This document shows, piece after piece, positions 27-56,729 of a stretch of 64,000 bases of DNA (the stretch's first letter is position 1; each line of letters opens with the position of its first letter). The notes below the pieces were generated by a model, which ran no database searches, was not told the origin of the DNA, and worked only from the letters and a program-made list of their open reading frames with translations. The stretch covers positions 1,448 to 65,447 of the forward strand of contig CAYRFL010000007.1 in the NCBI GenBank assembly GCA_964423515.1. The letters are read 5' to 3'. The position numbers and the translations under genes are program-made. This DNA is from an uncultured archaeon (GTDB lineage Archaea; Thermoplasmatota; Penumbrarchaeia; JASLWR01).

Positions 27-329
27 GTGAGATGCGCGAGGTGTTTTGACATGACCGACTATATCGCAGGAAAGGTAAGAAGGATCATCGATTCTCGCAG
101 CTTCGAGGTGAAAGTGGATTTCCGCGAGAAGAAGAACAGCGACATCTACCTCGATAACGAGGTGGTGAGACTGGCGGATTACAGGATGCCCATCCTCGGA
201 AGGGACAGAAAGAAGGTGGATCACCGCACGCTGAGACACAGGGTGTGGAACAGGTACGTGGTCCTCAGGGTCATAGGCAGGGATGACGACGACAAGGTGA
301 TCGCACATATATCCAGGGTTACGATGTGA
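27..329 (+). CDS. small hypothetical protein (basic, 100 aa)
   Basis: ORF-track ORF ending in TGA. An internal ATG at 51 (MTDYIAGK...) is an alternative start. The pattern GKVRRIIDSRSFEV...VRLADY loosely recalls an SNase/OB-like fold, but no catalytic motif is seen. Confidence 0.45.
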   Translation: MRCARCFDMTDYIAGKVRRIIDSRSFEVKVDFREKKNSDIYLDNEVVRLADYRMPILGRDRKKVDHRTLRHRVWNRYVVLRVIGRDDDDKVIAHISRVTM

Positions 330-496
330 TTTTAATAATCCTTCGGAATGCTGACGGGAAAAAATCGAAAAACATTGTCATTTATGTCAATGCTCTGATA
401 TAAAAATATGATTTAAGGTCAGTGGAGTGACATTAAATCCATTCTGCACAGGTGCTTACGTCAGCTCTGATTATAAAAACATACAACCTGACAAGC

Positions 497-529
497 GATA
501 AAAAATATAAAGGGGGGCCGGAGCCCCCC
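497..529 (-). terminator. GC hairpin plus T-run just 3' of the giant gene stop
   Basis: On the minus strand GGGGGG-CTCCGG-CCCCCC (512..529) is followed by TTTATATTTTTTAT. It lies about 20 nt after the TAG at 551..553. Confidence 0.35.
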
Positions 530-550
530 ATCGCCCCCTTCTCACCTTCC

Positions 551-3500
551 CTAATCCTGGTAGCGGTCCCAGTCCACATCGTCCTCGTTGTTCTCCAGGT
601 CGTCCTCCCAGCTGTCCTCCACCGGCTCCGGTCCCTTTCTCTTGCGTACGAACAGCAGGATGATGAACACCACCGCGAACACGGCGACGATAACGCCAAT
701 CACCACCAGCGTGGTCGAACTCCCGCCGTTCGGATCCTCGCCTTCCAGGTCCTTCTGCTGGGTCATTGGTGCGAATATGGTGAAGTGGGTAACGTTGGCG
801 GATACTATGTTGCGGTCCGCGTCAACCTCGGTGTTCTCACACACCTGCCACCCTTCGCTGTCCTCGTCCCAGTAGTAGAGCTTCAGGTCCTCCTCGTCCA
901 CATCGTCCGGTACGTCGGCGTCCTCGTAGTGCACCTCCACGTAGAACCAGTCCAGGTCACCGTCGATCTCGGCGATGATGAAGTTGCCGATTATCAGGCT
1001 GCCCTCGGGAACGTCGGCCCTCGCCTCTTCGGGAATATCCCTCTCCTCCACCCACTTCCAGCTCACGGTTCCCTCGCCCTTGAACTTGCACCGCACCTTC
1101 CTGCCCTGCCGGTTCTCGAACTCGGCCTCCACCACCTCGTCCTTCTCGATAGGTATGGTGGCCTCCTCCTTCTCATCGAAGTCCTCGTACCTGATCTCGC
1201 CGGTCTCCTCGTCCACAACATCGGGGACGGCGTAATCGCCTCCCGGAGGGGTGAACAGGTTGGCCTCGCCCACGAAATTGGGGTCGTGGAACACCCTGTG
1301 TGCTACCGGATAGAGGTACCCGCCCTTCATCATGAAACCGAAGAAGACGCCCTTCTCCATTTTCTTGTGTCGCACCCAGTCCACGAGGTTCACCACCTTG
1401 TCAACACCGTGCACCTGGAAGTAAGCGGGGACCGTGTAGGAGTCGTTGCTGTTGGCCTCGGGCCATATCTCCACGTCGGACACCCAGTTCATTCTGCCAA
1501 CGCGTTGCCAGTTGTCTGCGAAGTTGATGGTGTTCCGCTCTATCGCCTTGGCGTCTATGATGTCCATGACCTTGATCATCCTGCCTATCTCCTCGCGGTG
1601 AAGCTTCTCCAGGAGAGCCACGATATCCTCCTTTGTAATGTTGTACTCCTCACCGTGCCTGTAGGCCCACTCCAGGAGGTATCTGATATCTTCCTCCCCG
1701 AGGTGCTTGTGCTTGAATGCCCACACCAGCATTGCGGCGAACTTCTCCTTACTGATGAGCCCGTCGCCAATTGCTTTGACCAGGATGCGGGCCACCTCCT
1801 TCTCGGACAGTTTTCCTTCACGGTGAACCTGGAGCAGCACGAAGATGAGGTCCTCGCCCGCGAGCACCCCTTCCTCGAAGAGCTTCCCAAGGAAATGATG
1901 GATGAACTCTCCGTCGAGCACGCCGTACTTGTGACCCAGGATGAGCACGAAGGCAACCTCCTCGAGCTTCAGCTCCTCCGAAGCCAGAGCAAGCCTGACC
2001 AGCTTGATGAAATCCTCGCGATCCAGCTCACCTGCCTTGAAGGCCTGGACAAGAATCTCGGCCAGGTCCTCACGCTTGAGCTCTCCCGCGGTGTAGGCCT
2101 TGAAGAGCACCCACTTCACATCCTCCATGGTGAGATTGCCCAGTTTGTAGGACATCATGAGAAGCCAGCGGATATCGTCCCGGCTGAGCTCGCCCAGCTT
2201 GTAGGCTTCGATTATCAGCCATTTGAGGTCCTCGCGCGTTAGCTCACCGTCGCGGTAGGCCCTGGAAAGAAGCCAGCGAAGGTCCTCGCGCGTCAGCTCA
2301 CCCTTCAGATGGGCATGTACCAGCAGCCAGCGGAGGTCCTCGCGCGTTAGCTCACCGAGTTTGTGGGCCCTGAAGAGGATCCAGCGAAGGTCCTCGCGCG
2401 TCAGTTCACCATCCTCGTACGCCCGCGCCAGGAGCCAGCGAAGGTCCTCGCGCGTCAGGTTTCCCAGCTTGTAGGCGGTTATGATGATCCACTTGAGATC
2501 GGAGCGGTTCAGCTCGCCTTTCCGGAATCCCTCGAAGAGCACCTTCCTAAGGTCATCGAGGCGGAATTCGCCGTGCATAAGGTCGGATATCAGCATCCAT
2601 CGCAGAGTACCGCGATCGATGATGCCCTTCCTGTACAGCGTGAATATAAGCCAGTTCAGGTGCTCGTGCTTGAGCTCGTTTCTAACGTACATCCCAATAA
2701 GGAGCCACTTGAGCTCGAAATCGCTCAGCTTTGAAGCGTTGCGGAGCTCCATTATTATATGAAGGATGTCGCCCTCGTTCAGCTTATCGGCGCGGTAGCA
2801 TTCGACCACGAGCCATCTGAGAAAGCTGATGTTTATCTGGCCCTCTTCAAAGGAGCGGTTAAGGAACCACGCCAGGTCCCGGTGGGAAAGCTCCCTGTCG
2901 AGCAACATCCTCAGGAGATCCTCGAAGGGCATATCGCCCAGGTGATGGCTCTGGAACAGTATCCATCGGACCTCTTCCCTGGTGAGCTCGCTCGCGGCAA
3001 GTGCTGAGAAAAATATCCATCGGACCTCCTCGTGACTCAGATGGTTCCAGTGCCTGGAATCCACGAAGAACCAGCGAAGGTCGTCGAGATTGAGGCGGCC
3101 GTCCCCGTATGCCTTCAACACCAGTAACTTCAGGTGCAGAAGGTCGATCTCCTCGTTCATGTAGGCGCTTATAAGGAGCCACTTGTAATTGCCGAGGGGT
3201 TCCTGGAGGGTTTCGTTCTCCAGGACGGCCACGGTCAGGTTGTAAAGGTCCGGGAAGGACAGGTTACCCTTCATGTGCGCGATGAAAATGGCACGACGAA
3301 CGTCGTCCCTTCCCATGATGTGATGGACGTATATGGCAACGATGTTCTCGAGCCACCTGGGGTCGGAGCCATTGTTGGCCCGCCGGGTGATGTTCTCCCA
3401 GACCATGTGATATTCTGGAGAAGGTCTCGTGAGCTCCGCGGGGTCCGTGTCGCCAAGGGCACCGCCCTCCTTGAGGTCCGCCACGATCAGTCCTACCGTT

Positions 3501-6500
3501 TCACGGTCCAGCTGCCCGTACAGGAACGCAGTTCTAAGCAATTCCTCGATCTCGCGATCGTTCATCCATCCCTTCCCATGGGCAAAGAGAAGGGCGTCAA
3601 GGACCGAATCAAGGGTGAAATTCCCCTTCACGTAGGGACCGACGAGAAGATACCGCAGGTCGTGGATGTCCATTCCGGGATGTTCCCCCTCCCCGGGACG
3701 GTCGGCCCCGGCATATGCCGTCATAATGATGATGCCGGCGTCCCCGGCCGAGATGATCTCGAGGTCGTGGGCATGAAGGACGAATCCGAGTATCTCACGC
3801 CTGGTCAGAAGGTGCATGTCATAGCCCATGAACAGCAGGTTGCCGATATCTCCGGTATCTATCTTTCCGTCGGAGTAACCAATCAGGATCATACCCATCC
3901 ATTCCTCAACCGACACAATCTCGAGCTTGAAGGCCATCAGCATGAGGTGAAGCATCTCCTCCTTCTCGGCGCCTCCGTCATCATGGGACCTGAAGACGAG
4001 GTGAAACCACTCCTCCCGGGTTATTATCCCTTCTTGATAGGCCCCGGTAAGTATGTGTATCCATTCCTCCGGCCGTAGCTCGTCGTGCTTGTAGGCGAGC
4101 CAGAGTATGTTAAGAAGCTGCGTTCTGTTGATGATGTCGTTGTTGTGAGCGTGAATGAGGACGGCCACGAAATCCTTGTGTGAAAGCACCTCCATATGGA
4201 GTGCTATTATCATTATCCTCAACCAGTGCTCCTCATCTATGACGCCGTGTTTGTAGAGAAGCGAGAAGAACCTGACGAACTCGTCCCTCTCGAGACCGCC
4301 CTTCTCGTACACCTCCATGAAGAGATGGACCAGGCACTTCTCGTCCAAGAGCTCCTTCATGTGCAGCTTCAGTGCGATATGGATCCAATCCTCCTCGGTG
4401 AGGATGCCGTGGAAATAGAGGAGGGTCATGACGAAAAGCACGTCCTCGGGCGATGCCCCGTCACGGTGGACCTTGTCCATTATCTCCGCAAGGACCTCGC
4501 GCTCTATCCGCCCTTCCTCATAGACCCTTAGAAGCACCTTCACCCATTCCTCCTTCGAGAGCCAACCCTTCCTGCGGAGCTCTATCAGCGTGTCTATCCA
4601 CTCCTCCTTGGAGAACGCGTCCTTTCCGCCCAGTTCCGTCAGGATATAGACGAAGTCCTCGCGGCTCAGAAAGCCCTTCTCGCGGGCAAATACCAGCATG
4701 TCGAGGAATTCCTCCCGGTGGACGTATCTCCGCTCGTAGGCGATCAGCAGGAGTCCCACCAGTTTCTCCTTGTTTATCACGTCGGCTTTTACCATCTCCA
4801 CGAGTATCCATACGAGCTCCTCGCCGGCGATTATTCCATGCGCCTTGGATTTGAAGAGGAGTCCGATTATGTCCTCATCGGATATGGTTCCCGACTTGTA
4901 CAGGGAGAGAAAAACATCCCTCAGATCGTATTTGGTTATCTCGTGGTGCTTGTAGGCATCCAGGAGCCTCTCGAAGAACTCGCGCTGGCCGATCTTTCCC
5001 TTCTCCAGCTCTCCTGCGAGCTCCCGTATCTCCTTTCTAGCTTCCGGATTGATGACCACCGGCCCTCCCCTCTCCTCCTTGTCCTCTATCTTGTGCTTCC
5101 TCTCGTTCTCGTCGGCGTATTCCGCGTGGCCGCCGCCTTCGAGCATGTCCAGCAGTTCGCCCTTCAGCCAGCTGGCCACGTAAGCGGACAGATGATTTCC
5201 CATCAGCGTGTGGGTCTCGAGCATCAGCATGGAGTTGCCGGGATATTCCTTTCCGGAGGGCACCGGCTCCCTGTCCCACCCGACTATGTCGTGGTCGAAC
5301 TTGAAATCGGCTGTTACTGCCTTGCCCTCGAAGCTCTCCTTTCCTCTCAGCTTCGTTTTAATTCCATCCTCGGTGACATTGACGTCGTACTGGGGGATGT
5401 CCTCCATGGAGACGTTCTCCACCGAGACCTTCACGCGGAAGGTGAACTCTACCTTGTCGAGATGAGCGCGACCGGCGGAAGCATCGTCCACGTTCTCCTC
5501 CTTTTCATCCTCTTCGTTCTTCATGTCCATGAAGCGCCGGTAAGGCAGGTCCTTCCTGGTGAGCTTGAACTCCCATATGCGATGGTTCTCCCCGGACTGC
5601 TTCAGGGCGGGCCTCTGGAGATCCCATGCGCCCGCAAGGTCCACGGTCTTTAACACCGGTTCGTGGGTCTCCTTCAGTTCCGGTCTTTCCCGGGGCTCGT
5701 GGGGTTTCTTGTCCTCCTCCCCGGGTTTCTCGTTAGGGTCCCCGGGTTTCTCATTCGGATCCTCAGGCTTGTCATCCTGGTTCTCGGGTCTTTCGTTAGG
5801 GTCCCCGGGCTTCTCATTCGGATCCTCGGGTTTATCATCCTGGTTCTCAGGCCTTTCGTTCGGATCCCCGGGCTTCTCATCGGTATCTCCGGGATTCTCA
5901 TCCGGCCCTTCCCCGGCCTGGCGTGTTGGGCCCTCGTTCTTGGGATCTTCCTCATCCGATCCACCTTCATTGTCCCCGGGTTTCTCCTCCCCTTCCCCGG
6001 GCTTTTTATCGTTCTCGTCCGGTCCATCCGGTTCTATCTCGTAGAAATCGAAAGCGCTGTTGTTGTTGATGTCCTCGAACTCCATGATATAATCGAGGCG
6101 CTGGGCGAACACGGTCTGTACGGGTATACCGACCTTCTCCTCCACCTTGACGTTGCCCTCGCGGTCCTTCTTGCTCACGTTCGCAACGCCCAGATACCTC
6201 GTGTACATGGACACTATTGTCACGGCATTGGGGTTTTCTTCAGTACCGTAAACAACTGCGAACCACGAATCGCGGCCCACCCTCACCGCGACGTAATCGC
6301 CTCCCCCGTAGTCATCGGTGGTGCCTGTTTCCAGCTTGGCATCCCCCATGCCGGGAAGCTTGTCCCGGGGCGGAACGTCGCTTTCATTGGTCTTGTCATT
6401 TTCGTCGGGCCTTCCCGAGCCATCGGAATCGGTCCCGTCTTCATTCTTGCTCCCGTCGTTCGTATTCTCGAATGCAGCCACCACGCTGGCACCTATACCG

Positions 6501-6562
6501 CCCATTAGCAGTACGAGCACCAACATCACTGCCATCAATCGTCCGAGCTTTACACTTTTCAT
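551..6562 (-). CDS. giant exported, membrane-anchored 18-residue-repeat protein (2003 aa)
   Basis: N-terminal hydrophobic signal/anchor LMAVMLVLVLLMGGIGASVVAAF, then an acidic Pro-rich spacer, then about 1000 aa of 18-aa repeats (GELTREDLRWLLxRAYxx). A C-terminal beta-rich domain ends in NVTHFTIFAP (PGF-pre-PGF-like), followed by a TM helix LVVIGVIVAVFAVVFIILLFV and RKRK. Stop codon is TAG. Confidence 0.9.
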   Translation of the reverse strand: MKSVKLGRLMAVMLVLVLLMGGIGASVVAAFENTNDGSKNEDGTDSDGSGRPDENDKTNESDVPPRDKLPGMGDAKLETGTTDDYGGGDYVAVRVGRDSWFAVVYGTEENPNAVTIVSMYTRYLGVANVSKKDREGNVKVEEKVGIPVQTVFAQRLDYIMEFEDINNNSAFDFYEIEPDGPDENDKKPGEGEEKPGDNEGGSDEEDPKNEGPTRQAGEGPDENPGDTDEKPGDPNERPENQDDKPEDPNEKPGDPNERPENQDDKPEDPNEKPGDPNEKPGEEDKKPHEPRERPELKETHEPVLKTVDLAGAWDLQRPALKQSGENHRIWEFKLTRKDLPYRRFMDMKNEEDEKEENVDDASAGRAHLDKVEFTFRVKVSVENVSMEDIPQYDVNVTEDGIKTKLRGKESFEGKAVTADFKFDHDIVGWDREPVPSGKEYPGNSMLMLETHTLMGNHLSAYVASWLKGELLDMLEGGGHAEYADENERKHKIEDKEERGGPVVINPEARKEIRELAGELEKGKIGQREFFERLLDAYKHHEITKYDLRDVFLSLYKSGTISDEDIIGLLFKSKAHGIIAGEELVWILVEMVKADVINKEKLVGLLLIAYERRYVHREEFLDMLVFAREKGFLSREDFVYILTELGGKDAFSKEEWIDTLIELRRKGWLSKEEWVKVLLRVYEEGRIEREVLAEIMDKVHRDGASPEDVLFVMTLLYFHGILTEEDWIHIALKLHMKELLDEKCLVHLFMEVYEKGGLERDEFVRFFSLLYKHGVIDEEHWLRIMIIALHMEVLSHKDFVAVLIHAHNNDIINRTQLLNILWLAYKHDELRPEEWIHILTGAYQEGIITREEWFHLVFRSHDDGGAEKEEMLHLMLMAFKLEIVSVEEWMGMILIGYSDGKIDTGDIGNLLFMGYDMHLLTRREILGFVLHAHDLEIISAGDAGIIIMTAYAGADRPGEGEHPGMDIHDLRYLLVGPYVKGNFTLDSVLDALLFAHGKGWMNDREIEELLRTAFLYGQLDRETVGLIVADLKEGGALGDTDPAELTRPSPEYHMVWENITRRANNGSDPRWLENIVAIYVHHIMGRDDVRRAIFIAHMKGNLSFPDLYNLTVAVLENETLQEPLGNYKWLLISAYMNEEIDLLHLKLLVLKAYGDGRLNLDDLRWFFVDSRHWNHLSHEEVRWIFFSALAASELTREEVRWILFQSHHLGDMPFEDLLRMLLDRELSHRDLAWFLNRSFEEGQINISFLRWLVVECYRADKLNEGDILHIIMELRNASKLSDFELKWLLIGMYVRNELKHEHLNWLIFTLYRKGIIDRGTLRWMLISDLMHGEFRLDDLRKVLFEGFRKGELNRSDLKWIIITAYKLGNLTREDLRWLLARAYEDGELTREDLRWILFRAHKLGELTREDLRWLLVHAHLKGELTREDLRWLLSRAYRDGELTREDLKWLIIEAYKLGELSRDDIRWLLMMSYKLGNLTMEDVKWVLFKAYTAGELKREDLAEILVQAFKAGELDREDFIKLVRLALASEELKLEEVAFVLILGHKYGVLDGEFIHHFLGKLFEEGVLAGEDLIFVLLQVHREGKLSEKEVARILVKAIGDGLISKEKFAAMLVWAFKHKHLGEEDIRYLLEWAYRHGEEYNITKEDIVALLEKLHREEIGRMIKVMDIIDAKAIERNTINFADNWQRVGRMNWVSDVEIWPEANSNDSYTVPAYFQVHGVDKVVNLVDWVRHKKMEKGVFFGFMMKGGYLYPVAHRVFHDPNFVGEANLFTPPGGDYAVPDVVDEETGEIRYEDFDEKEEATIPIEKDEVVEAEFENRQGRKVRCKFKGEGTVSWKWVEERDIPEEARADVPEGSLIIGNFIIAEIDGDLDWFYVEVHYEDADVPDDVDEEDLKLYYWDEDSEGWQVCENTEVDADRNIVSANVTHFTIFAPMTQQKDLEGEDPNGGSSTTLVVIGVIVAVFAVVFIILLFVRKRKGPEPVEDSWEDDLENNEDDVDWDRYQD
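1880..5000 (-). repeat. in-frame 54-nt (18-codon) tandem repeat array, roughly 50-60 units with a few interruptions
   Basis: aggtcctcgcgcg recurs at 2226, 2280, 2334, 2388 and 2442, an exact 54-nt period. The flanking units are diverged but keep the same 18-aa periodicity in translation. Confidence 0.8.
5731..5890 (-). repeat. 63-nt (21-codon) tandem repeat encoding an acidic Pro-rich spacer
   Basis: Units start at 5731 and 5794, with a partial unit at 5857. The translation is PGDPNERPENQDDKPEDPNEK repeated. Confidence 0.8.
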
Positions 6563-6826
6563 GCTATCACCTTACGATGGAAATGTCGATCTTCTACCCT
6601 TTGTACCAATTGGAGCCTATATAAACTGTGGGCGAAGTTATGCGGAATATATATCATCGAAGAGCATGGGTGTCGGGAGTAAAAAACCTCACCAATGTCC
6701 ACCTCACAACCGACAATGAAGATACGGAAAAGTCTTAATCCTTGTAGCAAACACTCAGGTTCCTCCGGGGCACCCACGAGCAGAAAAAGGCGATCGGATA
6801 TTCTATTTTCGTAGCAAAGAGGGCGG

Positions 6827-7648
6827 TCACATCTCCTTTCCGCATTTCTGGCATTTCGTGTAGCTGCCCACGGGTATCCTCTCCTTGCACAACTTGCAGA
6901 AGAACTTCTTCTTGCAGGATATGCATCTGGTGGCCATGAGTGGAAGGGGTTGGAGGCACTTCGGGCATCTGAACGTCATACCGCAGTGTCGGCAGCTGGT
7001 GGAATAACCGGATATTGTCTCGCTGCACTTGGTGCAGGGAACCTCGAACTCACCGGAGCATGTTCTGCACCTGCCGCTGCCGCCGCACACCTTGCATTTT
7101 CTGCGCAGTATTCCGCTCCTGCCCTTTCCCCTGCAATTACGGCAGCGGAGGTCGTTCCGGCAGTCGGGACAGTACATGAGGTATTCGTTCCGGTTGCGCT
7201 TGATCTCGTCGTTCTTCCTTTTTTCCATATCGAGGAACTCCTCCTCGGAGACATCCTCCACGAACTCCTTTTCCTCGTCGTACCTGAAAGTGCCGTCGAA
7301 ATCCACCTCGTGCACGCCGTCAACCCCCACCACCTTCACGTTATCGTAGGTTATGACTCCCTTCTCCTCCTCGCGGTCCACCTCAGATACCACGGAAGAC
7401 ATGTCCCATAGATCTACCTTTTCGGAAGCCTGAAAGCTGACCAGGTCCGCCTCTCCCCAGTCCTTCACAACGTCCTCCTGGTGGGTTTCCTCCACCACCA
7501 GTATGTTGGAATCGAGCCATCCCTCCTCTTTCCCTTCGGAAGAAGATAGGGCATCCTTTCCCCCCGTTTCATCCTCCGGCAAGGTCCCCGGACCCCCGTC
7601 TTCCGGGGCGAGCTTCACTGCTTTTCTCTTGACGACCTTTTTTCCCAT
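6827..7648 (-). CDS. cytosolic multi-zinc-ribbon protein with acidic N-terminal half
   Basis: The C-terminal approx. 120 aa hold about 10 CxxC pairs (CPDCRNDLRCRNCRGKGRSG..CKVCGGSGRCRTCSG..CTKC..CRHCG..CPKC..CISC..CKLC..CQKCG). The ATG at 7648 follows GGTGAAAAAGGG and a TTAAATATTT box near 7690. The TTG at 7687 given in the ORF track is less likely. Confidence 0.75.
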   Translation of the reverse strand: MGKKVVKRKAVKLAPEDGGPGTLPEDETGGKDALSSSEGKEEGWLDSNILVVEETHQEDVVKDWGEADLVSFQASEKVDLWDMSSVVSEVDREEEKGVITYDNVKVVGVDGVHEVDFDGTFRYDEEKEFVEDVSEEEFLDMEKRKNDEIKRNRNEYLMYCPDCRNDLRCRNCRGKGRSGILRRKCKVCGGSGRCRTCSGEFEVPCTKCSETISGYSTSCRHCGMTFRCPKCLQPLPLMATRCISCKKKFFCKLCKERIPVGSYTKCQKCGKEM

Positions 7649-7811
7649 CCCTTTTTCACCAGCCGTTATAGCTCCATGCACGCGCAAATATTTAACTGAA
7701 TCGATGATATGATTTTATCAAAAACCGGGGTAGAAGGAAGCCTGTCTTCCCGGATCAAATACGATATGGTCCATTAAGAAGCATGATCATTTTTACGACG
7801 TCAGTGCAATG

Positions 7812-7833
7812 ATTGTGCCAATCTGTTTATATA
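7812..7833 (+). promoter_or_regulatory. ATTGTGCCAATCT motif fused to a TATA-like box (GTTTATATA)
   Basis: Lies about 24-45 nt upstream of the ATG at 7857, implying a leaderless or short-leader transcript. The same 13-mer abuts the TATA-like boxes at 56678..56707 and 63780..63809. Confidence 0.4.
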
Positions 7834-7856
7834 CAAGATATTGATATTCTTTTCCC

Positions 7857-9167
7857 ATGGACCTAAAACGGGGAACATCGGGCCTCATCCTGGTACTTCT
7901 TATCGCTTCGTTCATGTATGTGTCAGGGTTCCCACAGGCTATCACCTTCGGAGATGCCTCCGTCTCCCCGGCACAAATCGTGGGAGTTGAGGGTGAGGAG
8001 GCGAGCCGGGACACCATAACGGTGGACGGCAGCGGTGGAGGAGACCACGCGACCATCGGAGACGCCCTTCTCGCTGCCCAGACGGGTGACACCATTCTCG
8101 TGGCGGCGGGCATCTATCACGAGAGCCCCGTCATAGACTCCGAGGTGACCCTCATGGGCTCCGGAAGCGATTCCACCTTTCTGGTCTCCGATGCCCCAAG
8201 CGTTGTGGAGATAAGGGCCAGGAACGTTCTTCTCAAGGGCTTCAACATCACGGCCGAGCATCCGGGATCATCCGGGGCAGGCGTCTCCACCGAGAGTACG
8301 GACAGCTGCTCCATCGAGAACGTGACCATATCGAACAAGACGATAGGTATCCGGCTCAACAGCTCCCGGAGCATCATCATAATAAACAACAGAATGAAAC
8401 GCAACGGCATTCTCATAGAGGGAGATGCTCTGGCACACTGGAACACGCATACCATAGACACCTCCAACCTGGTCAATGGCAAGATGGTCCATTACTGGAA
8501 GAACGGGAGCGGGGGGAAGGTGCCGGACGACGCGGGGCAGATAATACTCACGGACTGTACCGGCGTCAGCGTGGAGAACCAGAACACCAGCGATACCAAC
8601 GTGGGCATAGATCTGTACAACTGTATGAATATGAATATCAAGGAATGCCACAGCGACGGGAACGACCCGTACGGAATGCGGATTCAATCTTCCACGGGTA
8701 ATGAGATAGACAACAACTCCATGTGCCGAAACGCGCTCTCGGGCATCATATGCGGCGACGGGGATACCATAACTTCGAACGAATGCAGCCGAAACGGCCT
8801 TTACGGCATCCGTTGCGGGAACCAGAACGTGATCCGCTCCAACACGTGCAGCTCCAACGGCCTTACCGGCATTTACTGCGGGGACTGGAACGAGCTCCGC
8901 CATAATGGTTGCGAATCCAACCAGCTCTCGGGTATACATCTATATTACGCCAGCCAATGCACCCTTAGGAACAACACCTGCAGGGGAAACACTGCGGCAG
9001 GGTTGATACTCAATACCTCCAACGATAACACCATCCTTGAGAACGACCTCTCATACAACGCGCTGGGCGGGACCGAGTTCCTTGACTCCTACGACAATAC
9101 CGTGACAGGAAACACAATGGAGCACAATGCAGACGGCGTTCTGCTCTCCGGTTCACATTCGAACTAG
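7857..9167 (+). CDS. secreted right-handed parallel beta-helix (NosD/PbH1-like) protein, N-terminal part; ends at an in-frame TAG
   Basis: Signal-like LILVLLIASFMYVSG, then a DGSGGGDHATIGDALLAAQTGDTILVAAGIYHE cap, then many Nx[IL]xxNx repeats. The reading frame continues unbroken past the TAG at 9165..9167. Confidence 0.8.
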   Translation: MDLKRGTSGLILVLLIASFMYVSGFPQAITFGDASVSPAQIVGVEGEEASRDTITVDGSGGGDHATIGDALLAAQTGDTILVAAGIYHESPVIDSEVTLMGSGSDSTFLVSDAPSVVEIRARNVLLKGFNITAEHPGSSGAGVSTESTDSCSIENVTISNKTIGIRLNSSRSIIIINNRMKRNGILIEGDALAHWNTHTIDTSNLVNGKMVHYWKNGSGGKVPDDAGQIILTDCTGVSVENQNTSDTNVGIDLYNCMNMNIKECHSDGNDPYGMRIQSSTGNEIDNNSMCRNALSGIICGDGDTITSNECSRNGLYGIRCGNQNVIRSNTCSSNGLTGIYCGDWNELRHNGCESNQLSGIHLYYASQCTLRNNTCRGNTAAGLILNTSNDNTILENDLSYNALGGTEFLDSYDNTVTGNTMEHNADGVLLSGSHSN

Positions 9168-9275
9168 TTTCGCTCCAATGTCATCGGTCCCAACGACAAT
9201 ACCGGAATAACGCTCCTCGGCTCGGAGAGAAACGACATCATAAACAACACGTTCATCTCGAACGTCGACTACGGG

Positions 9276-11330
9276 ATGGCTGCCGACATCGATTCCCGTG
9301 AGAATCTCATTTATGACAACAATTTCCTCGATAACAACGGCGACGGCGTGCAGGCCACCGATAACGGCACTGACAACAGGTGGAACACCTCCACCGGCGG
9401 TAATTACTGGTCGGACTGGATGACGCCGGACGATAACGGCAACGGAATAGTCGATGAACCCTACGAACTGGACGGGGACGCGGGAGCCAGCGACCTGCTG
9501 CCATTGACCGACGTTCCCTCCAACCCCATAGTAAGGGCCGACGCAGGCAGTGACATCACTGTGAACCAGCACCGCGAGGTGACCTTCAACGGCACGGGCT
9601 CCTGGGCAAACGCAGCCATCGTCAACTTCACCTGGAGCTTCGAATACGGGGGGATCGGCGTTCATCTATACGGGGAAAGACCATCCTTCCTGTTCCACGA
9701 TGCAGGAACCTACTCGGTGGACCTGCGGGTGCTGGACGCCCGGGGAAGGAACGACACGGACAACATGACCGTGAACGTGCTGGACACCGAGGCCCCGGTG
9801 GCATTGGCGGGACCGGATACGGTGATAAACAGGGGCGAGGCCTATCGTTTCAACGGAAGCGGCAGCACCGACAACACGAAGATAACGAACCTGACCTGGT
9901 CCTTCGAGTACGGTGGCGACGAGGTTCGCCTCTACGGGACGGATGCTTCATTCATTTTCGTCGTTCCCGGCATTTACAATATAACGCTGACGGTCATCGA
10001 TACCGGCGGCAACGTTCACCGGGATTATCTCACGCTCACGGTCCGAGACTCCGACCTTCCCATTGCCAGGGCGGGGAAGGACGTGACCGTGGAGCAGTAC
10101 GACAGGGTGAGCTTCGACGGCGGCACCAGCTTCGCCGTGGGATCGGCGAACCACACCTGGTCCTTCGAGTACGAGGGCAAGGATATCATTCTGTACGGTC
10201 CCACGGGCAGCTTTACATTCGTCGAGCCCGGGGAGTACAACGTCACCCTCAACGTCACCGACGGACAGGGAAGGTGGGACCTCGATCACCTCCTCGTGAC
10301 TGTAGAGGACGTCACTCCCCCGGTGGCGGAAGCGGGAACGAACAGAACGGTGAGCCCGGGGGATACGGTGGAGCTCGACGGGAGGACCAGCCGAGACAAC
10401 GTTGGTATCGACAATTACACCTGGACCATAGAGAGGAACGGGAGCGAGCTGTCGCTTTATGGCCCCCAGGTAACGCATCTCTTCGGCCTGCCCGGCATAT
10501 ACGGCGTTGCCCTTACCGTGAAGGACGAAGGAGGGAACAGCGACACCGACGAGATATTCATCAACGTGACGGGAGAAGGAACGGACGAGCCGGATAACGG
10601 CGACGGGAACGAGAGCGATTCCGACGGCGACGGCTGGAACGATACGACCGAGGAGAAATGCGGCACCGATCCTTACGACAACACGTCGTTCCCGGAGGAC
10701 ATGGACGGAGATGGAATACCCGATAAGCTGGACGGAGACATAGACGGTGACGGAGTTCCGAACGAGAAGGACGCCTACCCCAGGGACCCGGATAGATGGG
10801 AGAAGGAATCACACCTCCAGACCATACTGATCTTCGTGGGCCTGGGTCTTGTGCTGCTGATAGCGAGCATACTCGTGTACAGCAAGCTGAAGGGCCGGGA
10901 TATTCTCAGCAACGAGAAGAGGCAGATGATAGTGGATTACATCAACGAGCACCCCGGGGAGCATTACAGGGAGATCAAACGAAAACTGTCCATGCCCAGC
11001 GGCACGCTGCGCCATCACCTGAGAACCCTGGAGACCGCCTCAATGATAAGGGGCCATCGGGACGGTAAGTACCTGTATTATTTTCCGTACTCCGTGAGGA
11101 ACGTGCCCCCGGTGCTCACCCCTGCCCAGAAGGAGATCGTGGAGACCATCGGGAAGAGGCCGGGGCTCACGGCCCGGGAACTGGCCAAGAGCATGGGAAA
11201 GACCAGGAGGGCGGTGCATCATCACCTGTCCGAGATGTCCGATCTGGGCATCGTCCGGCCCGAGGCGAACGGTAAGGGCTCGTGCTGGCACCTGTCGGAA
11301 GGAGAGTGGAAGGGTGGGGAGCTTACATAG
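9276..11330 (+). CDS. beta-helix end + PKD domains + acidic Ca-binding-like DxDxDG repeats + TM + two cytoplasmic winged-helix domains (frame is open from 9168)
   Basis: Same frame as 7857..9167. Contains GGNYWSDWMTPDDNGNGIVDEPY, four to five PKD-like modules (WSFEYGG...LYG...G.Y.V.L.V.D), DSDGDGWND..DMDGDGIPD..DIDGDGVPN, a TM helix ILIFVGLGLVLLIASILVY, then INEHPGEHYREIKRKLSMPSGTLRHHLRTLE and LTARELAKSMGKTRRAVHHHLSEMSDLGIV. Confidence 0.8.
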   Translation: MAADIDSRENLIYDNNFLDNNGDGVQATDNGTDNRWNTSTGGNYWSDWMTPDDNGNGIVDEPYELDGDAGASDLLPLTDVPSNPIVRADAGSDITVNQHREVTFNGTGSWANAAIVNFTWSFEYGGIGVHLYGERPSFLFHDAGTYSVDLRVLDARGRNDTDNMTVNVLDTEAPVALAGPDTVINRGEAYRFNGSGSTDNTKITNLTWSFEYGGDEVRLYGTDASFIFVVPGIYNITLTVIDTGGNVHRDYLTLTVRDSDLPIARAGKDVTVEQYDRVSFDGGTSFAVGSANHTWSFEYEGKDIILYGPTGSFTFVEPGEYNVTLNVTDGQGRWDLDHLLVTVEDVTPPVAEAGTNRTVSPGDTVELDGRTSRDNVGIDNYTWTIERNGSELSLYGPQVTHLFGLPGIYGVALTVKDEGGNSDTDEIFINVTGEGTDEPDNGDGNESDSDGDGWNDTTEEKCGTDPYDNTSFPEDMDGDGIPDKLDGDIDGDGVPNEKDAYPRDPDRWEKESHLQTILIFVGLGLVLLIASILVYSKLKGRDILSNEKRQMIVDYINEHPGEHYREIKRKLSMPSGTLRHHLRTLETASMIRGHRDGKYLYYFPYSVRNVPPVLTPAQKEIVETIGKRPGLTARELAKSMGKTRRAVHHHLSEMSDLGIVRPEANGKGSCWHLSEGEWKGGELT

Positions 11331-12457: not shown

Positions 12458-12820
12458 TCACCGCTTCTTTACATTTCGTCCCTTCCCCTTCCGCGCCTTC
12501 GCCCTCCGTGCGGCATTGAAGGCTTTCGTCGCCCATGCGGCCAGCAGGTCCCCGTTCTCCAGAACGTCGTCCGGCACCTCGTAGTATGACATGGAGGACT
12601 TACCACCATACGGACGGAACGGACCCATGCCTCTTTCCTCGAAATCGGGGCGGTTCCGATCGTCCGCCTTTAGATAGAACCTGTCACCGTCGTCGATGAG
12701 GGCGAACATAACTCCCTCGAAGTAGATGCCGGCACCGCCGAACATCTTCCGCGCGCTCACCCCGCCGAACGTCGAAAGCTGGTCGCAAACGTATTCGATA
12801 TATCCATCGGATGCTGACAT
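12458..12820 (-). CDS. TfoX N-terminal domain protein
   Basis: SARKMFGGAGIYFEGVMFALIDDGDRFYLKAD is typical of TfoX_N, and the tail is basic. Confidence 0.8.
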   Translation of the reverse strand: MSASDGYIEYVCDQLSTFGGVSARKMFGGAGIYFEGVMFALIDDGDRFYLKADDRNRPDFEERGMGPFRPYGGKSSMSYYEVPDDVLENGDLLAAWATKAFNAARRAKARKGKGRNVKKR

Positions 12821-20885: not shown

Positions 20886-23800
20886 CTACCCCAGCTTTCC
20901 CTTCACGCCGCAGCTCGGGCACTTTATCTTCCTGGCGTTCTTCTCGATGTAGAAAGTGGCATCGCACTTAGGGCATTCCACCTTCTCTCCCGCAGCTTCC
21001 TTCTTCGCCCTTCCAAGCGCCTCGTCCAGCGTGACCTTCTTCACCGGCTCGCGTACCGCTTCTCGTGCCGCCTTCACCGCCTCCTCACTGGCCGGGGGAA
21101 GCCTCTTGATGGTGGCCCTGTGCTTGGCCAGGAGCTTCTCGTATTCGCTCTTCTTGATGTCGCCCTTGGCCTTGCAGTGCGGGCAGGTGATGTCCTTGTA
21201 TGTGTTGGTCATGAAGGCCTTGTCGCACTTGGGGCATCTAATCCTCACGCCGGTCTCCATCGGGTCGGCTGCGGTGGACGCGGGTAGCGTCGGCTGCTTC
21301 GCCAGTGCCGCAGGTGACGGAATCTTCTTAGCTTTGGGCTCCTTCCTGGCCGGCTCCTCCTCTGGTTCCATTGCGCGCTTCAGCGCCTTCTCGATCCTCT
21401 CCCGAAGGATGGGAGGCACCGGTGTGTTGGTCTTTCCCCCCGTACCGCATTGCGGACATTCCATCACGAGGGGCCTCTCGCCATAATCCTCCACCTCGAA
21501 GGCTGCGCCGCACTTGGGGCAGAGTATGGGCTGTTTTACCGGATCTATGAGGTCCCTGATGGGTATCTTCGGTTCCGCTGCCGCGGTCCTCGTCACCGCC
21601 TCGGTTCCGTACAGGTCCTCCGAATCGTCCCCGCCATCGGATACACCCAACTCTTCCACGTCCGTATCGGCCCCCAGTTTTCCTTTACCCGTCTTCGGTT
21701 TTCTCTTTCTCCTTATCACCAGGAAATATCCGGCTACAAGTATCACTAGAACTATTATCGCCATTCCGCCGTACTGGGCGAATTCGCCCTCCGGGAGGAA
21801 CGGTATTATCTTGAGGCCTCCACTATCATCGTCATCGTCATCCCCGGTTGCCGCCGGCCTGGTCAGGGTCACGTTCACGGAATCGTACGCAACATACTGC
21901 GGATACTTGTCGCTTCTGAGCTCCACGTAGATATCGTAATCGCCAGCGGACCTAAGGGTAAACTCATGCTCGATATCATCGAAATCCTCCGTGAAGGTCT
22001 CGGAATCCACCTCCTCGTCGCCCTTCCTGAGCGTAACGATGACCTCGTCGATGAAATTGCCCTCGGCGGAGCACCTCACGGTGAAGGTTATCTTTACTTT
22101 CGTCCATTTTTTTCCGTTCGAGGGCTCCGTGATCTCTATGCTCGGGGTGTCCAGCTTCACCTCTTCCTCCTTCTCGAGTATGAGTAGCGTCATGGTGGCG
22201 CTGTGATTGCCGCCCCTGTCGTCATCCACCGTCAGAGTTATCTCGTATGTACCGGGAGTATCGTACACATGCTCCACTTGCTCGGTCCCAGCATCCATGC
22301 CGTCCCCGAGATCCCAGCTGTAGGACAGGCCATCCTCGTCCGCGTCGGTGGAAGCGGCGGCGGTGAGGGTCACAATATCTCCCTCGTATATGTCCTCGGT
22401 ATTGACAAGGGTTATCACAGCCTCCGGCGGCGTGTTGATCAATACCAGGAGCGTATCGTTGTCCATGGCGCCCGAACTGTCGGTCACGGTGAGCGTCACC
22501 TCGTACTCGCCTGCCTCGTCGTACTCATGGGTAGGGATCTTCCCCTTTTCCGTTCTTTCGTCACCCATCTTCCAGGAGTATGTGAGGTTGTCCGTTTCAT
22601 CGCCGTCTATCACCCCGTTCCCGTCGATATCGTCATCGGGATCGTAGCTGGCGGAGGCGTCGAAGGCCAGTTCCTCGCCGATATTGGCCAGCATGTCCTC
22701 CCCTGCCTCGGCCACGGGCCCAAGGTTATGAATCTCGATGATAAGGTCCGCCTCGTCGCTGGCGGTCCCGCCCCTGCCGTCCTGCACCCATAGAACCACG
22801 ATATATTCACCGGGGCTCTCGTAGATATGGGTTACCTCGGGGCCCTCTTCGTCTATCTCACCGTCGCTCTCGAAGTCCCACTGAAAGGTGAGCTCGTCCC
22901 CGTCCTCGTCGTACGAGGAAAGACCGTCGAAGGAGAGTTCCTCGTCCACAAAGCCGCTCACGTCTCCCATGAGAACAGCTACCGGGGGCTCGTTCACAGT
23001 GATATCCACGCTGTCGGTGTCGTTGGCCCCGAAGGGATCTGAAACCGAGAGGTTCACGGTGTAGGTCCCGCGGCTGGTGAACTTGAATGAGGGGGATTCG
23101 CTCTGGGAATCGATCACCCCGTCGCCGTCGAAATCCCACTTGTAATAAAGCCTCTCATCGTCGCTGTCCGACGAATTCCCTGCAAAGAATCTGATCGTCT
23201 GATTCACGTTTATGAGCTTCTGGTTGCCCACTACCTCGATCTTTGCATGTGGCTCCCTGTTAACGGCAATGGTAACGTCGATCGTATCGGTGTCGTTGGC
23301 CCCGCTGGGATCCTCCACCAGAAGTGTGGCCGTGTAGCTGCCAGCCTCGTCGAAGGCGTGGTCCGCGGTCTTGTTATGATCGTCCCATACCCCATCACTC
23401 TCGAAGTCCCACATGTACGACAGCGTATCGCCGTCCTCGTCGGTGGATTCCCCTCCCTCGAAGGTCAGTTCCTCCCCCACCCGGGCCTTCCCCTCGTCGC
23501 TGACGTTGGCTTTGGCATTGGGGGGATGATTGGGGGTCATGGTCACCGTTATGGTGGCCTCGGCTGTTGAGCTGGCACCGTGGATGTCTGAAACGGTGAG
23601 TGTGATGTTATGCATTCCCTCCGGCATTATCCGTGAGAAGGAACGCTGATTCGATAGCTGGCCCAGCTTGTCGGAACGCCATTCGAAGGTGTCGAGTTCC
23701 TCGTTCCCGTTGGGGTCGGTGGTATGGGTGCCGTCGAAAAGTATTGTATCGGATGTGAAGTAATTCTCTCCGTCCGCCGGAGAGCTGATGACCGCATGGG

Positions 23801-26678: not shown

Positions 26679-26820
26679 GGAACGGGCGAGGAAAAGAATT
26701 CAGGGTGGGAACGTTCGATATCGAGCATTACAACAAGATTACAATATCATCAGGGACGGACTTACAATGAGGAATGGTCAGGTATTCGAATTCAAATCGG
26801 GAACGTTCGGTATCGAGTAT
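26583..26820 (+). repeat. 92-nt tandem repeat (about 2.6 copies) spanning the RNase R start
   Basis: ATGAGGAA occurs at 26675 and 26767. GGTATTCGAATTCAA(G/A)TCGGGAA..TCGGTATCGAGT occurs at about 26597 and about 26781. Confidence 0.8.
26675..26770 (+). CDS. candidate upstream ORF 2 (31 aa) copying the RNase R N-terminus
   Basis: Encodes MRNGRGKEFRVGTFDIEHYNKITISSGTDLQ. Its TGA overlaps the RNase R ATG as ATGA at 26767..26770. Confidence 0.35.
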   Translation: MRNGRGKEFRVGTFDIEHYNKITISSGTDLQ

Positions 26821-29800
26821 CCCGACAACATCGCGATATTCCTGGGAAGGTCGAGAAAGGGGAAGAAACACTCCATCGTAGCCTTCACGGTGAGAGGAAA
26901 GCAGTATATGAGGCCCAGATACGTTTCAAAGAAAAAGATAAACTGGCCTGACGTGAAGGATGAGCTCTATGATACGTTCCGTTTGACGGAATCCCTCAGG
27001 GACATTATCAGAAACTTGCGTGGAAAGAAGGGGGGTGGAGGAAAAGGAGCGGAGGGGGGGGTATCCGGCAGGAGATTTAAGATCCTGAAGATATCGGGAA
27101 AGCATGTCATTCCCAAACATACCTCGGCCAGGGAAATATGGCTTGCATCCAATTCGATGAAGACCGCAAGTCCCGGGAAGTTGGCCTCCAATTATCTGGG
27201 CTCCCAATCGGTGAGCTCGGGACAGTTGGAGAGGATCGGGGCCATCGTTCGAAGCAGCATGGATGACGGGCTTCCCTACTTCAGGCGGGCCAGAAAAAAT
27301 AGAACTGAATTCGAAATGATGAGCAAGGAGGAATACACAGCCATAAACGACGATATCAAGGCTCTCTACAGATTGAGAAGCGAGCTCGAAGGATACAAGG
27401 TGGGGAAAGGAGAAAGACTGTTCCCATCGGTCCACCCAGCTGAGATGTCTCTTGAGAAGTGCTTTATGGTGTTTTCGGATTTCGATAGTGGCACCGATGG
27501 ACGACATTCCGGGATCATGAGCTCCATTTGCAGATGGACCGAGGAATTCATCAGACATGACGGATGGATAGGTCCCGTGGGTCTGGGCGGAACGAAGGTA
27601 CTGAAAATGGAAGAGTTCGACCTCGATCCCTTTCTTCGGGATATGGCCGGAACAGTGACGAACCTCAAGAAATGTTCCCATACGACCCTGTTCACTGCAT
27701 TTCTCATAGCACTTGGTTTATGGACGAAGGAGAGGGCAATGAGGGTATACATGCAGAGGTTCGTGGAAACCGGTATATTCGATTTCAAGCTCAAATATCC
27801 CAAGATTGCCCACCGGGATGCAATGTTTCGCCGACGGGAAGTTGGGATACTGGAAGTTGGCGAAGAGGGGGCAGCATATCGAGAGTCGGAGAACCCATCT
27901 TATGATGATGAGAGCGGATCTGCGAACGAGGGAGCAGCATATCGAGAGTCGGAGAATCCATCTTATGATGAAGAGAGCGGATCTGCGAACGAGGGAGCAG
28001 CATATCGAGAGTCGGAGAATCCATCTTATGATGAAGAGAGCGGATCTGCGAACGAGGGAGCAGGCTATCATTGTAGGCAGAATAGAAGGAACCTGAGAGA
28101 CCTGTTTACCGTAACCGTGGACCCGCACGATGCAAAGGATTTCGATGATGCTATCTCCATCGTCGAGCAGGACGGACGGGCCGATCTCTATGTGCACATA
28201 GCCGATGTATCTCACTATGTGGAAAAGGATACTCCTCTGGATGATGAGGCATTGTACCGGGCGACCAGTGTGTATCTACCGGATACGGTCCTGCCAATGC
28301 TGCCCGAGATACTCAGCAATGATCTGTGCTCCCTGAGAGCCGGGGAGGACAGGCTGGCAGTGACCACTCACATGGTTTTCGACCGGGAAAGGGAGCTTGT
28401 TGATTTCGACATCTTTCCATCCCTCATTTCGGTGGATTCAAACCTATCCTACGATATGGTGCTGGAGGATTATGACGATGGAAGACAACCCTTCGCAAGA
28501 TGGATCGAGTTCAGCGAGGAACTGAGAAGGAAGCGAAAAGAGCTTCACCTACAAACGAGCGAGATGAAGATACACATCAGGGACAACGTCGTGAAGACCT
28601 CGGTGAAACGAGAGAACCCGGCCACCAGGATGATAGAGACGTTCATGGTCACCACCAATGAGGTCATAGCGATGTACATGACGGCATATACGGGCTCGCT
28701 CGCATACAGGATCCACGGCCTGCCGGACGTGGCCGACCTGGGACTCTATAACGCTATAGCCGAGAGGATGGGACTCGAGGTGGTCACTTTTGACAAGGAC
28801 ATTATAAGGAGGGAGGAGGAGAGGAAGGAGAGCAGGTCATATGAAGGATCGGGCATGAGCATCGGGGATGGGATACTTCGAACCGGTACATTGAAGATAA
28901 CGGTTGATAACGAAGTTCCCAATGAGCTGAGGGAAGTTCTAGGATTGGGAGCAGTGAACGAAAGGAACGGGGACGGAAACGAAGAATGGGATGAGAGAGG
29001 GAGCGAAGGAAGACAAAGGGGAATGAGAAAACGGGGATCGAGGGTGAGAAATGAAGCAGAGAAATATCGGCTCGAACTGCGTGATATCCTTTCCGAACGA
29101 GGGGGGGATATCGATCACTTTCATGCCGGACAGGATATGATCGGGCAGGAACAGGATATGATCGGACAGGAACAGGATATGATCGGACAGGAAAGGGGGA
29201 TGGATAGACAGGAACAAGGGATGGATGGACAAGAACGAGGGATGAAAGGGCGGGATAAATACTATGTATATAGATTGAAGCAAAGGATTGAAAAGGAGCT
29301 TTCGAAGCGCACGGATCTGACCAAAAGAGATTTCCTTCTGGATCGATTGAATGAGATCCTGGAAAGCGTTAACGGCGCCGATATGGACGAGGGATTAAGG
29401 GAGCTTCTTAACATACAGGTGCTCAGAACGCTTCAACTGGCGCTCTACAGCACCGAGAACATTGGTCATTTCGGTCTCGGTTCGAACTGCTATCTTCACT
29501 TCACATCGCCCATCAGAAGATATGCCGATCTCATGGTGCACAGGATCCTCAAGGATATCTTCAATTTGGTTGATAAGGACGGGCGCGGCGGGGTGGATCA
29601 TACTGACGAGGGATTCTGTACAATGGAGGAAGCGGAGGGAATATCCTATACAATTGAGGAAGCAGAGGGAATATCCTATACAATTGAGGAAGCAGAGGGA
29701 ATATCCTATACAATTGAGGAAGCAGACGAAATATGTGAAAGATGCTCCGATCAAGCCAGGGGAGCAGAACGCTTTGAGCGTAGCATGAATGACATATGTC

Positions 29801-34408: not shown

Positions 34409-34564
34409 ATGGCCGAGATGATAAGAAGTACAATGCTCCTGGCTGCCGTTACCGCGACCGGAACGCTGCTGTTTTTCAGCTCAAGGGACATTTCACTGTT
34501 GGATACACTGTTATCCACAGCCGGTAACGCTCTGTCCTCCTTCGTTAAAGGGGTGAGTTCATGA
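34409..34564 (+). CDS. small membrane protein (51 aa), translationally coupled to DUF4097 gene
   Basis: Encodes MAEMIRSTMLLAAVTATGTLLFFSS... Its TGA overlaps the ATG at 34561 as ATGA. Not in the ORF track because it is under 60 aa. Confidence 0.4.
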   Translation: MAEMIRSTMLLAAVTATGTLLFFSSRDISLLDTLLSTAGNALSSFVKGVSS

Positions 34565-35499: not shown

Positions 35500-35547
35500 T
35501 GATACGCGAGGAGGAAGGGGTATGACAATAAATGAGGAGGAAGGGGT

Positions 35548-53918: not shown

Positions 53919-54122
53919 TATTCTTCTCCAGATCCTTTGTCGGTTGGCGCATTTCCAGAATGTGTTTTTTTTGGTACTCGATGTAACTTCCAGTGTGATC
54001 AGTATGTGTCATACCCCCGGTACGAATAAAGGATCATGTGTCCAGCGCTGCGATGAGCATTGATGAATAAAAAAGAGAAAGGACGGAGTTCCATACTCCG
54101 CCGCTTCTCGAAATTCCACTTC

Positions 54123-56707: not shown

Positions 56708-56729
56708 CGACCCCGGGGCACACGTGTGT

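Follow-up and report, generated by a model that had tools for sequence, protein, structure and literature searches.

Transmembrane transcription regulators (TTRs), which combine a transmembrane (TM) region with a DNA-binding domain, form a defined class with 1,384 archaeal cases in 367 species, the single-pass form being the commonest (Demey et al. 2023, PMC10269533). The DNA-binding domains in that census include HTH_20 and HTH_24 at about 1.2% each, its text and the supplements consulted contain no mention of PKD or beta-helix domains, and Thermoplasmatota are not discussed in the main text (PMC10269533). Two membrane-bound one-component factors of Sulfolobus acidocaldarius, ArnR and ArnR1, are described as controlling surface structures (PMC6396743). 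In the TTR prototypes ToxR, TcpP, and CadC, one polypeptide likewise joins a TM segment to an extracytoplasmic domain and to a cytoplasmic DNA-binding domain. ArnR has an N-terminal helix-turn-helix domain and C-terminal TM helices, with no large ectodomain. Here, we describe a gene at positions 7857..11330 on the forward strand of a 64,000-nucleotide stretch (contig CAYRFL010000007.1 of assembly GCA_964423515.1; hereafter the window) from an uncultured member of the Thermoplasmatota. Its reading frame, interrupted by one stop codon, encodes a predicted surface protein with a C-terminal tail of two winged-helix (wHTH) domains, and probably belongs to a lineage-wide family of transcription regulators anchored in the membrane.

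Both defining features of a TTR are found in the product: a DNA-binding domain, recognized by Pfam, by the NCBIfam model NF033788, and in the AlphaFold2 (AF2) model, and at least one TM segment in the same protein, conserved in 143 of 150 family representatives. Regulation of transcription from the membrane is indirectly supported by gene order beside Opp-type operons and by a promoter element associated with these genes. The original prediction had regarded such proteins as falling outside any described regulator class, a claim contradicted by the archaeal TTR census and by the characterization of ArnR and ArnR1. The class is known, and what sets this protein apart from the prototypes is its reversed topology, its tandem-wHTH tail, its large ectodomain, and the lineage-wide expansion of its family. 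ToxR and CadC have an N-terminal OmpR-type wHTH, an N terminus inside the cell, and a C-terminal periplasmic sensor, whereas here the ectodomain is N-terminal and the DNA-binding module C-terminal; Pfam gave no match to Trans_reg_C, the OmpR-type wHTH, in the product, which does not have the ToxR/CadC-like layout. It also differs from the prototypes in its cleavable signal peptide, its tandem ArsR/MarR-type pair, a linker of ~10 residues, ectodomains that are large adhesin-like arrays, and the pairing of one conserved tail with a conserved TATA-adjacent element across the lineage. The differences from ArnR are the opposite domain order, the absence of any sequence relationship to the tail, and the lineage, which is Thermoplasmatota here.

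The frame comprises 1157 codons and is continuous but for one in-frame TAG. It encodes a signal peptide at the N terminus, then a NosD-type beta-helix followed by four PKD domains and an acidic stretch, and finally one TM helix with two ArsR-type winged helices behind it (Table 1). This is the layout that the original prediction had read from the sequence; Pfam matches and exact positions agree with it, and the coordinates and both tail peptide strings quoted there were found as given. The acidic stretch may bind calcium, judging from its sequence pattern. A type-I single-pass topology is predicted, with the basic tail in the cytoplasm: the signal peptide is N-terminal, the domains that follow it are of extracellular type, the isoelectric point is 4.2 for the ectodomain against 9.8 for the tail, and the segments flanking the TM helix differ in charge across the family, with acidic residues in excess toward the ectodomain and basic ones in excess toward the tail. 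These observations favor the out-TM-in arrangement proposed earlier. Directly after the TM helix comes the family-conserved juxtamembrane motif Y-[ST]-[RK]-[LI]-[KR].

Several profiles place the tail among DNA-binding domains. HTH_HVO_0163_N (Pfam PF24266) was matched at residues 1019-1079 with 49.1 bits in the full protein and 57.4 bits in the tail alone, against a gathering threshold of 31 bits, and HTH_24, HTH_5, and HVO_A0114 were matched at residues 1085-1140; HTH_HVO_0163_N, HTH_24, HTH_20, and HTH_5 all exceed their Pfam cut-offs. The first domain, wHTH1, passes the ArsR/SmtB model NF033788 (59.5 bits, cut-off 55) and bears the ArsR/SmtB-like signature xGTLxHHLxxLE, and the best sequence match of the tail in the PDB is 5duk_A, a "putative DNA binding protein" (3e-16). 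An AF2 model of the tail, built from a 27-sequence alignment (pLDDT 90), has one long helix that covers the TM and juxtamembrane segments (tail residues 2-34) and then two canonical H-H-H-wing modules. Taken singly, these modules superpose in Foldseek on SmtB, ArsR, and MarR at about 1 Å rmsd (0.9-1.4 Å for SmtB/ArsR), so that the winged-helix fold proposed for the tail is well supported. The TM helix leads straight into the first helix of wHTH1, and in the model the membrane interface is only ~10 residues from this domain, a short and rigid link. Both the wHTH1 signature and its fold are common to ArsR/SmtB and to archaeal ArsR-like regulators such as Phr (2p4w), PH1932 (1uly), and 5duk. ArsR/SmtB proteins, however, form homodimers through alpha1/alpha5 and have alpha3N or alpha5 metal sites, whereas in the AF2 model the wing of wHTH1 is followed not by an alpha5 helix, which would serve for dimerization or as a metal site, but by a linker and the second wHTH in the same chain; wHTH1 is also fused to the TM helix at alpha1.

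The presumed rarity of this architecture did not hold, as the same tail defines hundreds of protein clusters in Thermoplasmatota. A word-indexed homology search with the tail returned only three short matches, and an exhaustive HMMER profile scan of 1.84e9 representatives was needed to recover the family, with 11,722 matches, of which 615 clusters reach E<=1e-30. The best 150 matches are almost without exception proteins of 300-1568 aa matched at their extreme C-terminus; a hydrophobic (TM) helix just before the tail match is present in 143 of these 150, and most also have an N-terminal hydrophobic segment. The median distance from TM to wHTH1 is 16 residues. Among 58 long members sampled, HTH_HVO_0163_N is found in all 58 and HTH_24 in 57, and the ectodomains include PKD (19), NosD (9), and CARDB (7), along with He_PIG, NPCBM_assoc, Cadherin_4, Big_9, and DUF11. 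Across 143 tails, two segments hardly vary, the juxtamembrane P-L-Y-[ST]-[RK]-[LI]-[KR] and, as the recognition helix of wHTH1, N-G-T-L-x-[YH]-H-L; the juxtamembrane Y is kept in 141, and wHTH2 is more variable. The closest relatives share 56-57% tail identity and the same order of beta-helix, four PKD domains, acidic stretch, TM helix, and two wHTH domains.

Named members and 35 genomic loci are assigned to Thermoplasmatota, Thermoplasmata, Methanomassiliicoccales, and Proteinoplasmatales metagenome-assembled genomes, with one weak haloarchaeal match. Genomes can carry multiple family paralogs, as locus L054 shows: two members lie 2 kb apart and divergent, one at 295..4560 (-) (1421 aa, PKD-rich) and the other at 6604..9948 (+) (1114 aa, NosD/PKD). 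Database labels for members read only "winged helix-turn-helix transcriptional regulator" or "beta-helix repeat protein". A literature search found no published description of the tail family; HVO_0163 appeared in one acetylome paper only, two Makarova papers on dark matter and membrane proteins contain no description of the family, and a search for Thermoplasmatota with beta-helix and HTH domains gave nothing relevant. The gene belongs to a large and apparently uncharacterized Thermoplasmatota family of probable membrane-anchored regulators, a set of putative one-component receptors in which widely differing extracellular domains share one conserved DNA-binding tail. Regulation of transcription in uncultured Thermoplasmatota is a largely unexplored field.

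Gene order provides one of the indications of what the family may do. A subfamily of ~336 aa, with a Big_1 Ig-like ectodomain, a TM helix, and two wHTH domains, is encoded immediately before an Opp-type ABC operon (SBP_bac_5, two permeases, and an ATPase), and in the same orientation, in 17-24 loci from several lineages. This is a conserved tie to the uptake of peptides, which is a key trait in Thermoplasmatota from sediments and marine waters. The SBP_bac_5 binding protein of the operon carries a Big_1 Ig domain, as does the ectodomain of the ~336-aa regulator.

The second indication comes from the promoters. Upstream of the window gene, an element ATTGTGCCAATCT stands directly 5' of a TATA box (Table 1), and the spacing of element, TATA box, and ATG implies a leaderless or near-leaderless transcript. 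The window contains exactly three copies of the element, all at surface-protein promoters, and the VIT-VWA gene that bears one of them precedes a free tandem-wHTH paralog. Before the orthologs in loci L001, L003, and L004 the element is invariant while its flanks have diverged, a close variant, GTTCAAATCT-TTATTTATA, precedes family member P0030 in a 5.2-Mb Thermoplasmata genome, and the intergenic regions of the Opp-linked subfamily contain a related element with the consensus ATTATACAAAAcgccGTACAAATCTgcTTTTATA. The family loci, 332 kb in all, contain 26 matches to the degenerate core GTRCMAATYT on the strand of the family gene and none on the other, with 5.1 expected per strand. Twenty-two of the 26 sites lie either 42-43 nt before the ATG of the family gene or 46-191 nt past its stop, in the transporter promoter, and these 22 are always 1-3 nt 5' of a TATA box. 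The original prediction had offered the shared promoter motif as a candidate target of the tail, and this family-wide, strand-specific association strongly reinforces that suggestion.

The Opp-type site is a direct repeat, with ACAAA 12 bp apart, and the promoter of the window gene reads GTGCAAT-N4-GTGCCAAT. Such a repeat would suit recognition by two winged helices arranged head to tail. The conserved promoter before the SBP_bac_5 gene in L013 and ~20 related loci is ATTATACAAAA-N4-GTACAAATCT-N2-TTTTATA, again an ACAAA direct repeat with a 12-bp period. In the window, sites with one mismatch to the motif are no more frequent than expected (15 found, 18.7 expected), and no weaker sites were found there before the paralog or other surface-protein genes. 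A metagenome scan for the long motif with its TATA box returned 15 loci; L042, a copy of the ortholog locus, was the only related one, and the others, most of them in AT-rich DNA, appear to match by chance.

We favor the explanation, to which we assign a probability of about 58%, that the gene is a copy, interrupted by a stop, from a Thermoplasmatota-wide family of type-I single-pass transmembrane transcription regulators, and that its product probably binds GTGCCAATCT-TATA at its own promoter and at two other surface-protein promoters. The Sec signal peptide would export a variable ectodomain, here the NosD beta-helix and four PKD domains, and a single TM helix would leave the tandem winged-helix module in the cytoplasm at the extreme C-terminus. 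This module would bind GT[AG]C[AC]AAT[CT]T, often with a similar half-site one helical turn upstream, where it abuts the TATA box, and would thereby control transcription initiation of its own gene and of neighboring surface or transport genes. The extracellular input may come from the ectodomain, for example by polymer or surface binding or by clustering. In the window, the predicted regulon consists of the gene's own promoter (7812), the VIT-VWA and free tandem-wHTH genes (56687), and the NosD/PKD paralog (63789). The Opp synteny, the promoter-element association, and the near-invariance of the recognition helix all argue for such a regulator. These points, like the architecture, the fold, and the size and taxonomy of the family, are observed, and DNA binding itself, the role of the motif as operator, the direction of regulation, the nature of the signal, and action while tethered are inferred. 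A concrete candidate operator against the TATA box would make regulons predictable from sequence alone, and the reversed-topology tail is a test of how a DNA-binding domain ~10 residues from the membrane can reach a promoter.

A number of points weigh against this explanation. The links from tail to DNA and from tail to motif are associations between sequences, and a different factor could bind the motif, or the operons could simply share it as a promoter element specific to the lineage. Variants of the motif go with variants of the recognition helix clade by clade, a pattern confounded with phylogeny. The loci behind the motif statistics were retrieved by two peptide patterns, over-represent one subfamily, and include several close relatives; among four other long members sampled, two (in L053 and L054) have no motif within 90 nt of the start. 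The ~10 residues between membrane and wHTH1 in the model could hinder DNA binding by the tethered protein, and the in-frame stop, considered below, may keep the protein from being made in one piece. Should the motif be wrongly assigned, the finding would come down to an ordinary domain fusion within a known class.

The short link to the membrane is also the main argument, besides gene adjacency, for a different activation step, in which a rhomboid would cut within the TM helix, shed the adhesin-like ectodomain, and free the tandem wHTH as a soluble factor, in a manner similar to Notch or Spitz, with release before DNA binding favored by so short and rigid a connection. A rhomboid gene starts 45-70 nt past the stop of the ortholog in L001 and L003 and in the more distant L004, and the L001 and L003 rhomboid matches score identically, apparently one population; the adjacency counts as roughly two independent cases. 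The substrates that rhomboids prefer are type-I single-pass proteins with helix-destabilizing residues, and the predicted topology and the G/A-rich positions in the outer half of the TM helix (GLG in the window; G, A, and V the commonest residues at tail positions 13-15 in the family) agree with this preference. The module can work without a tether to the membrane, as the free tandem-wHTH paralog shows. On the other hand, phmmer found no rhomboid homolog in the 64-kb window, and neither a rhomboid nor any other intramembrane protease lies beside 30+ other family loci or in L053, L054, and L056 (near P0019, P0027, and P0030). No natural substrate has been established for an archaeal rhomboid (PMC9263693), and we regard release by proteolysis, one of the routes of signaling suggested earlier, as unlikely on the present evidence. 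Notch, Spitz/rhomboid, and SREBP/ATF6 are comparable in being type-I single-pass proteins with a large ectodomain and a transcription-related cytoplasmic domain, and a protease gene adjoins the orthologs here; the differences are that the protease is unlinked in the window and at most family loci, and that a prokaryotic factor does not need release to reach DNA. The full version of this idea is an archaeal Notch-like pathway in the ortholog group, in which the neighboring rhomboid of the relatives cuts an adhesin-like receptor and the freed factor binds GTGCCAATCT-TATA and switches on a surface-protein regulon. We consider it improbable. If true, it would give an archaeal rhomboid, for the first time, a natural substrate and a physiological role, and would define a Thermoplasmatota-wide set of contact- or ligand-gated tethered transcription factors with a predictable operator; in any case, one ortholog group offers a testable candidate substrate. 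A further alternative is that the winged helices are not a transcription factor at all and serve as an interchangeable cytoplasmic tail that docks to a partner or to the nucleoid, as an envelope-DNA tether, or oligomerizes in the way of ScpB and ESCRT-II adaptors. The best whole-tail Foldseek matches are indeed tandem-WH adaptors and scaffolds (TFIIIC, ScpB, SelB, ESCRT-II), although these are weak, with a TM-score of about 0.3, and do not discriminate function. Other type-I surface proteins of the window (20886..26141, 60614..63919, and 551..6562) bear different tails, and near-invariance of wHTH1 over hundreds of paralogs with different ectodomains would be unusual for sequence-specific regulators with distinct regulons. 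Against such a role, profiles put both domains in the DNA-binding ArsR/SmtB/MarR families, wHTH1 above a curated cut-off, and their superposition on SmtB and MarR is close; adjacency to ABC operons and a strand-specific promoter element are what a local regulator predicts, and anchoring leaves them unexplained. We therefore see little prospect for a purely structural tail, and the DNA anchor mentioned in the original prediction has no specific support.

The remaining alternative concerns this genome rather than the family, and is compatible with the family-level explanation: the gene may be a recent pseudogene, or split in two, with no function as a tethered regulator. TAG is an ordinary stop in the window, where it terminates 15 of 41 long open reading frames (ORFs), and the TAG at 9165 should therefore end translation; it would separate the signal peptide from the TM helix and tail. 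Gene callers divide the frame into products of 436 aa and 684 aa. A second, independent public assembly, L057 (ENA ERZ23499064), has the identical TAG at 2782..2784 and the same 436-aa call, and a one-off assembly error is therefore unlikely. Frameshifts elsewhere fit the same picture: the free paralog likewise appears to carry one, and in the L001 ortholog one falls within wHTH1. Recoding of the TAG, as for pyrrolysine, was judged unlikely given its use as a normal stop. What speaks for a functional gene is the state of the rest of the frame. The codon falls at a variable position of a beta-helix repeat, the repeat carries on through the 36 codons that follow, as far as the next ATG, and the 2,160 nt 3' of the TAG contain no further stop or frameshift and keep every domain intact. 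The promoter element is likewise intact, and the orthologs in L003 and L004 have uninterrupted frames. Readthrough or a strain polymorphism may also reconcile the stop with a working gene. Loss or splitting of the gene in this genome is thus a possibility to be taken seriously, and one that we nevertheless doubt.

Table 1. Features of the tethered regulator gene, its promoter, and related genes. Positions refer to the window unless a locus is named.
Feature	Position	Strand	Basis or remark
Coding frame, tethered regulator	7857..11330	+	1157 codons, one TAG inside
Candidate operator of the tandem wHTH, promoter element ATTGTGCCAATCT	7812..7824	+	Core GTGCCAATCT 42 nt before ATG
TATA box TTTATATA, directly 3' of the element	7826..7833	+	Sequence; same arrangement in 20+ related loci
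Sec-type signal peptide MDLKRGTSGLILVLLIASFMYVSGFPQA	7857..7940	+	Read from sequence; residues 7-25 hydrophobic
NosD-type right-handed beta-helix ectodomain	8034..9416	+	Pfam NosD 3e-39, Beta_helix 5e-35
In-frame TAG inside beta-helix repeat (SHSN*FRSN)	9165..9167	+	Reading of the frame
Four PKD domains	9522..10571	+	Pfam PKD_4 3.6e-48, 4 stretches
Acidic DxDxDG (TSP3-like) juxtamembrane stretch, predicted outer side	10572..10811	+	Sequence pattern
Single TM helix LQTILIFVGLGLVLLIASILVYS	10815..10883	+	Hydrophobic 23-mer, Kyte-Doolittle 2.93
wHTH1, ArsR/SmtB-type, recognition helix SGTLRHHLRTLE	10914..11087	+	Pfam, NCBIfam, AF2, PDB match
wHTH2, MarR/HTH_24-type, recognition helix more variable in the family	11121..11294	+	Pfam, AF2
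Second exact copy of the element, abutting TATA box	56687..56699	-	Upstream of VIT-VWA surface-protein gene 54123..56723
Third exact copy of the element, abutting TATA box	63789..63801	-	Upstream of NosD/PKD type-I surface protein with basic tail, 60614..63919
Paralog: signal peptide, beta-helix, TSP3-like stretch, TM, one wHTH, CxC..CxxC, disordered end	50842..52956	-	
TM of the paralog	51376..51450	-	
Single wHTH of the paralog	51196..51369	-	Pfam and NCBIfam matches below cut-offs; phmmer to tail 2e-8
CxC..CxxC segment of the paralog, putative zinc ribbon	51025..51096	-	
Free tandem-wHTH paralog	53550..54012	-	Directly downstream of VIT-VWA gene
Rhomboid gene, directly downstream of the ortholog, same strand	L001 6246..6836; L003 6531..7121; L004 ~6606..7214		

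Two relatives of the tail are encoded elsewhere in the window. The paralog at 50842..52956 has the TM helix, wHTH, and CxC..CxxC segment at the positions first proposed for them, with the wHTH matches remaining below family cut-offs; it also gives a weak Pfam match to TSP3_bac. A single-sequence AF2 model of its tail was uninformative (pLDDT 51), and the GTGCCAATCT element was not found upstream of this gene. The protein described earlier as consisting of just two wHTH domains, 53550..53918 (-), does match the tail (E 2.5e-31, about 40% identity), but the ORF as first given is truncated at its 5' end. Its GTG start at 53918 truncates helix 1, and homology extends upstream to about 53972, where no in-frame start was found. 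An ATG at 54012 lies in another frame, one off, across an A8 run at 53965..53972, so that the gene has a probable frameshift in this run, or the sequence suggests a homopolymer error. The intact homolog P0014 (156 aa) carries the missing first helix. The phmmer match and the comparison with P0014 bear out the proposal that tethered and free versions of one module coexist in this organism.

Four type-I surface proteins of the window have a single C-terminal TM helix and differing tails: the paralog at 50842..52956(-); 551..6562(-), whose tail is short and acidic; 20886..26141(-), in which six PKD domains precede a 275-aa tail with three CxxC..CxxC zinc ribbons; and 60614..63919(-), with a NosD/PKD ectodomain and a strongly basic tail. 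In this organism, surface proteins may more widely carry cytoplasmic tails of a nucleic-acid-binding type.

The regulator gene has a cysteine-rich multi-zinc-ribbon protein as its divergent neighbor (6827..7687 (-)), and a double-zinc-ribbon (DZR) protein occupies the equivalent divergent position in 23 Opp-linked loci (e.g., L013 4295..5344 (-)). Homology between the two was rejected, their similarity being driven by Cys residues only. A TfoX_N-domain gene lies ~1 kb downstream of the regulator gene (12458..12820 (-)), and another is found beside the distant member P0027 (L053 13225..13554), which may reflect residual synteny or a functional link.

The window also contains several features of separate interest. 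At 38153..42189 (-) lies an RNA-repair pair typical of bacteria, Pnkp (kinase-phosphatase-ligase, 852 aa) with Hen1 (493 aa), after which comes an AAA_14/DUF4143 ATPase. The G+C content of this stretch is 0.44-0.45, compared with about 0.55, and it may be a horizontally acquired island. An RNB-domain (RNase R/II-like) protein of 1147 aa at 26767..30210 (+) has three perfect tandem copies of EEAEGISYTI near its C-terminus. Finally, a Toastrack (DUF4097) protein, a small protein, and a membrane protein with HAAS and "Sensor" domains are encoded in succession at 34561..36904 (+), in what looks like a membrane signaling cassette of the PadR-HAAS type.

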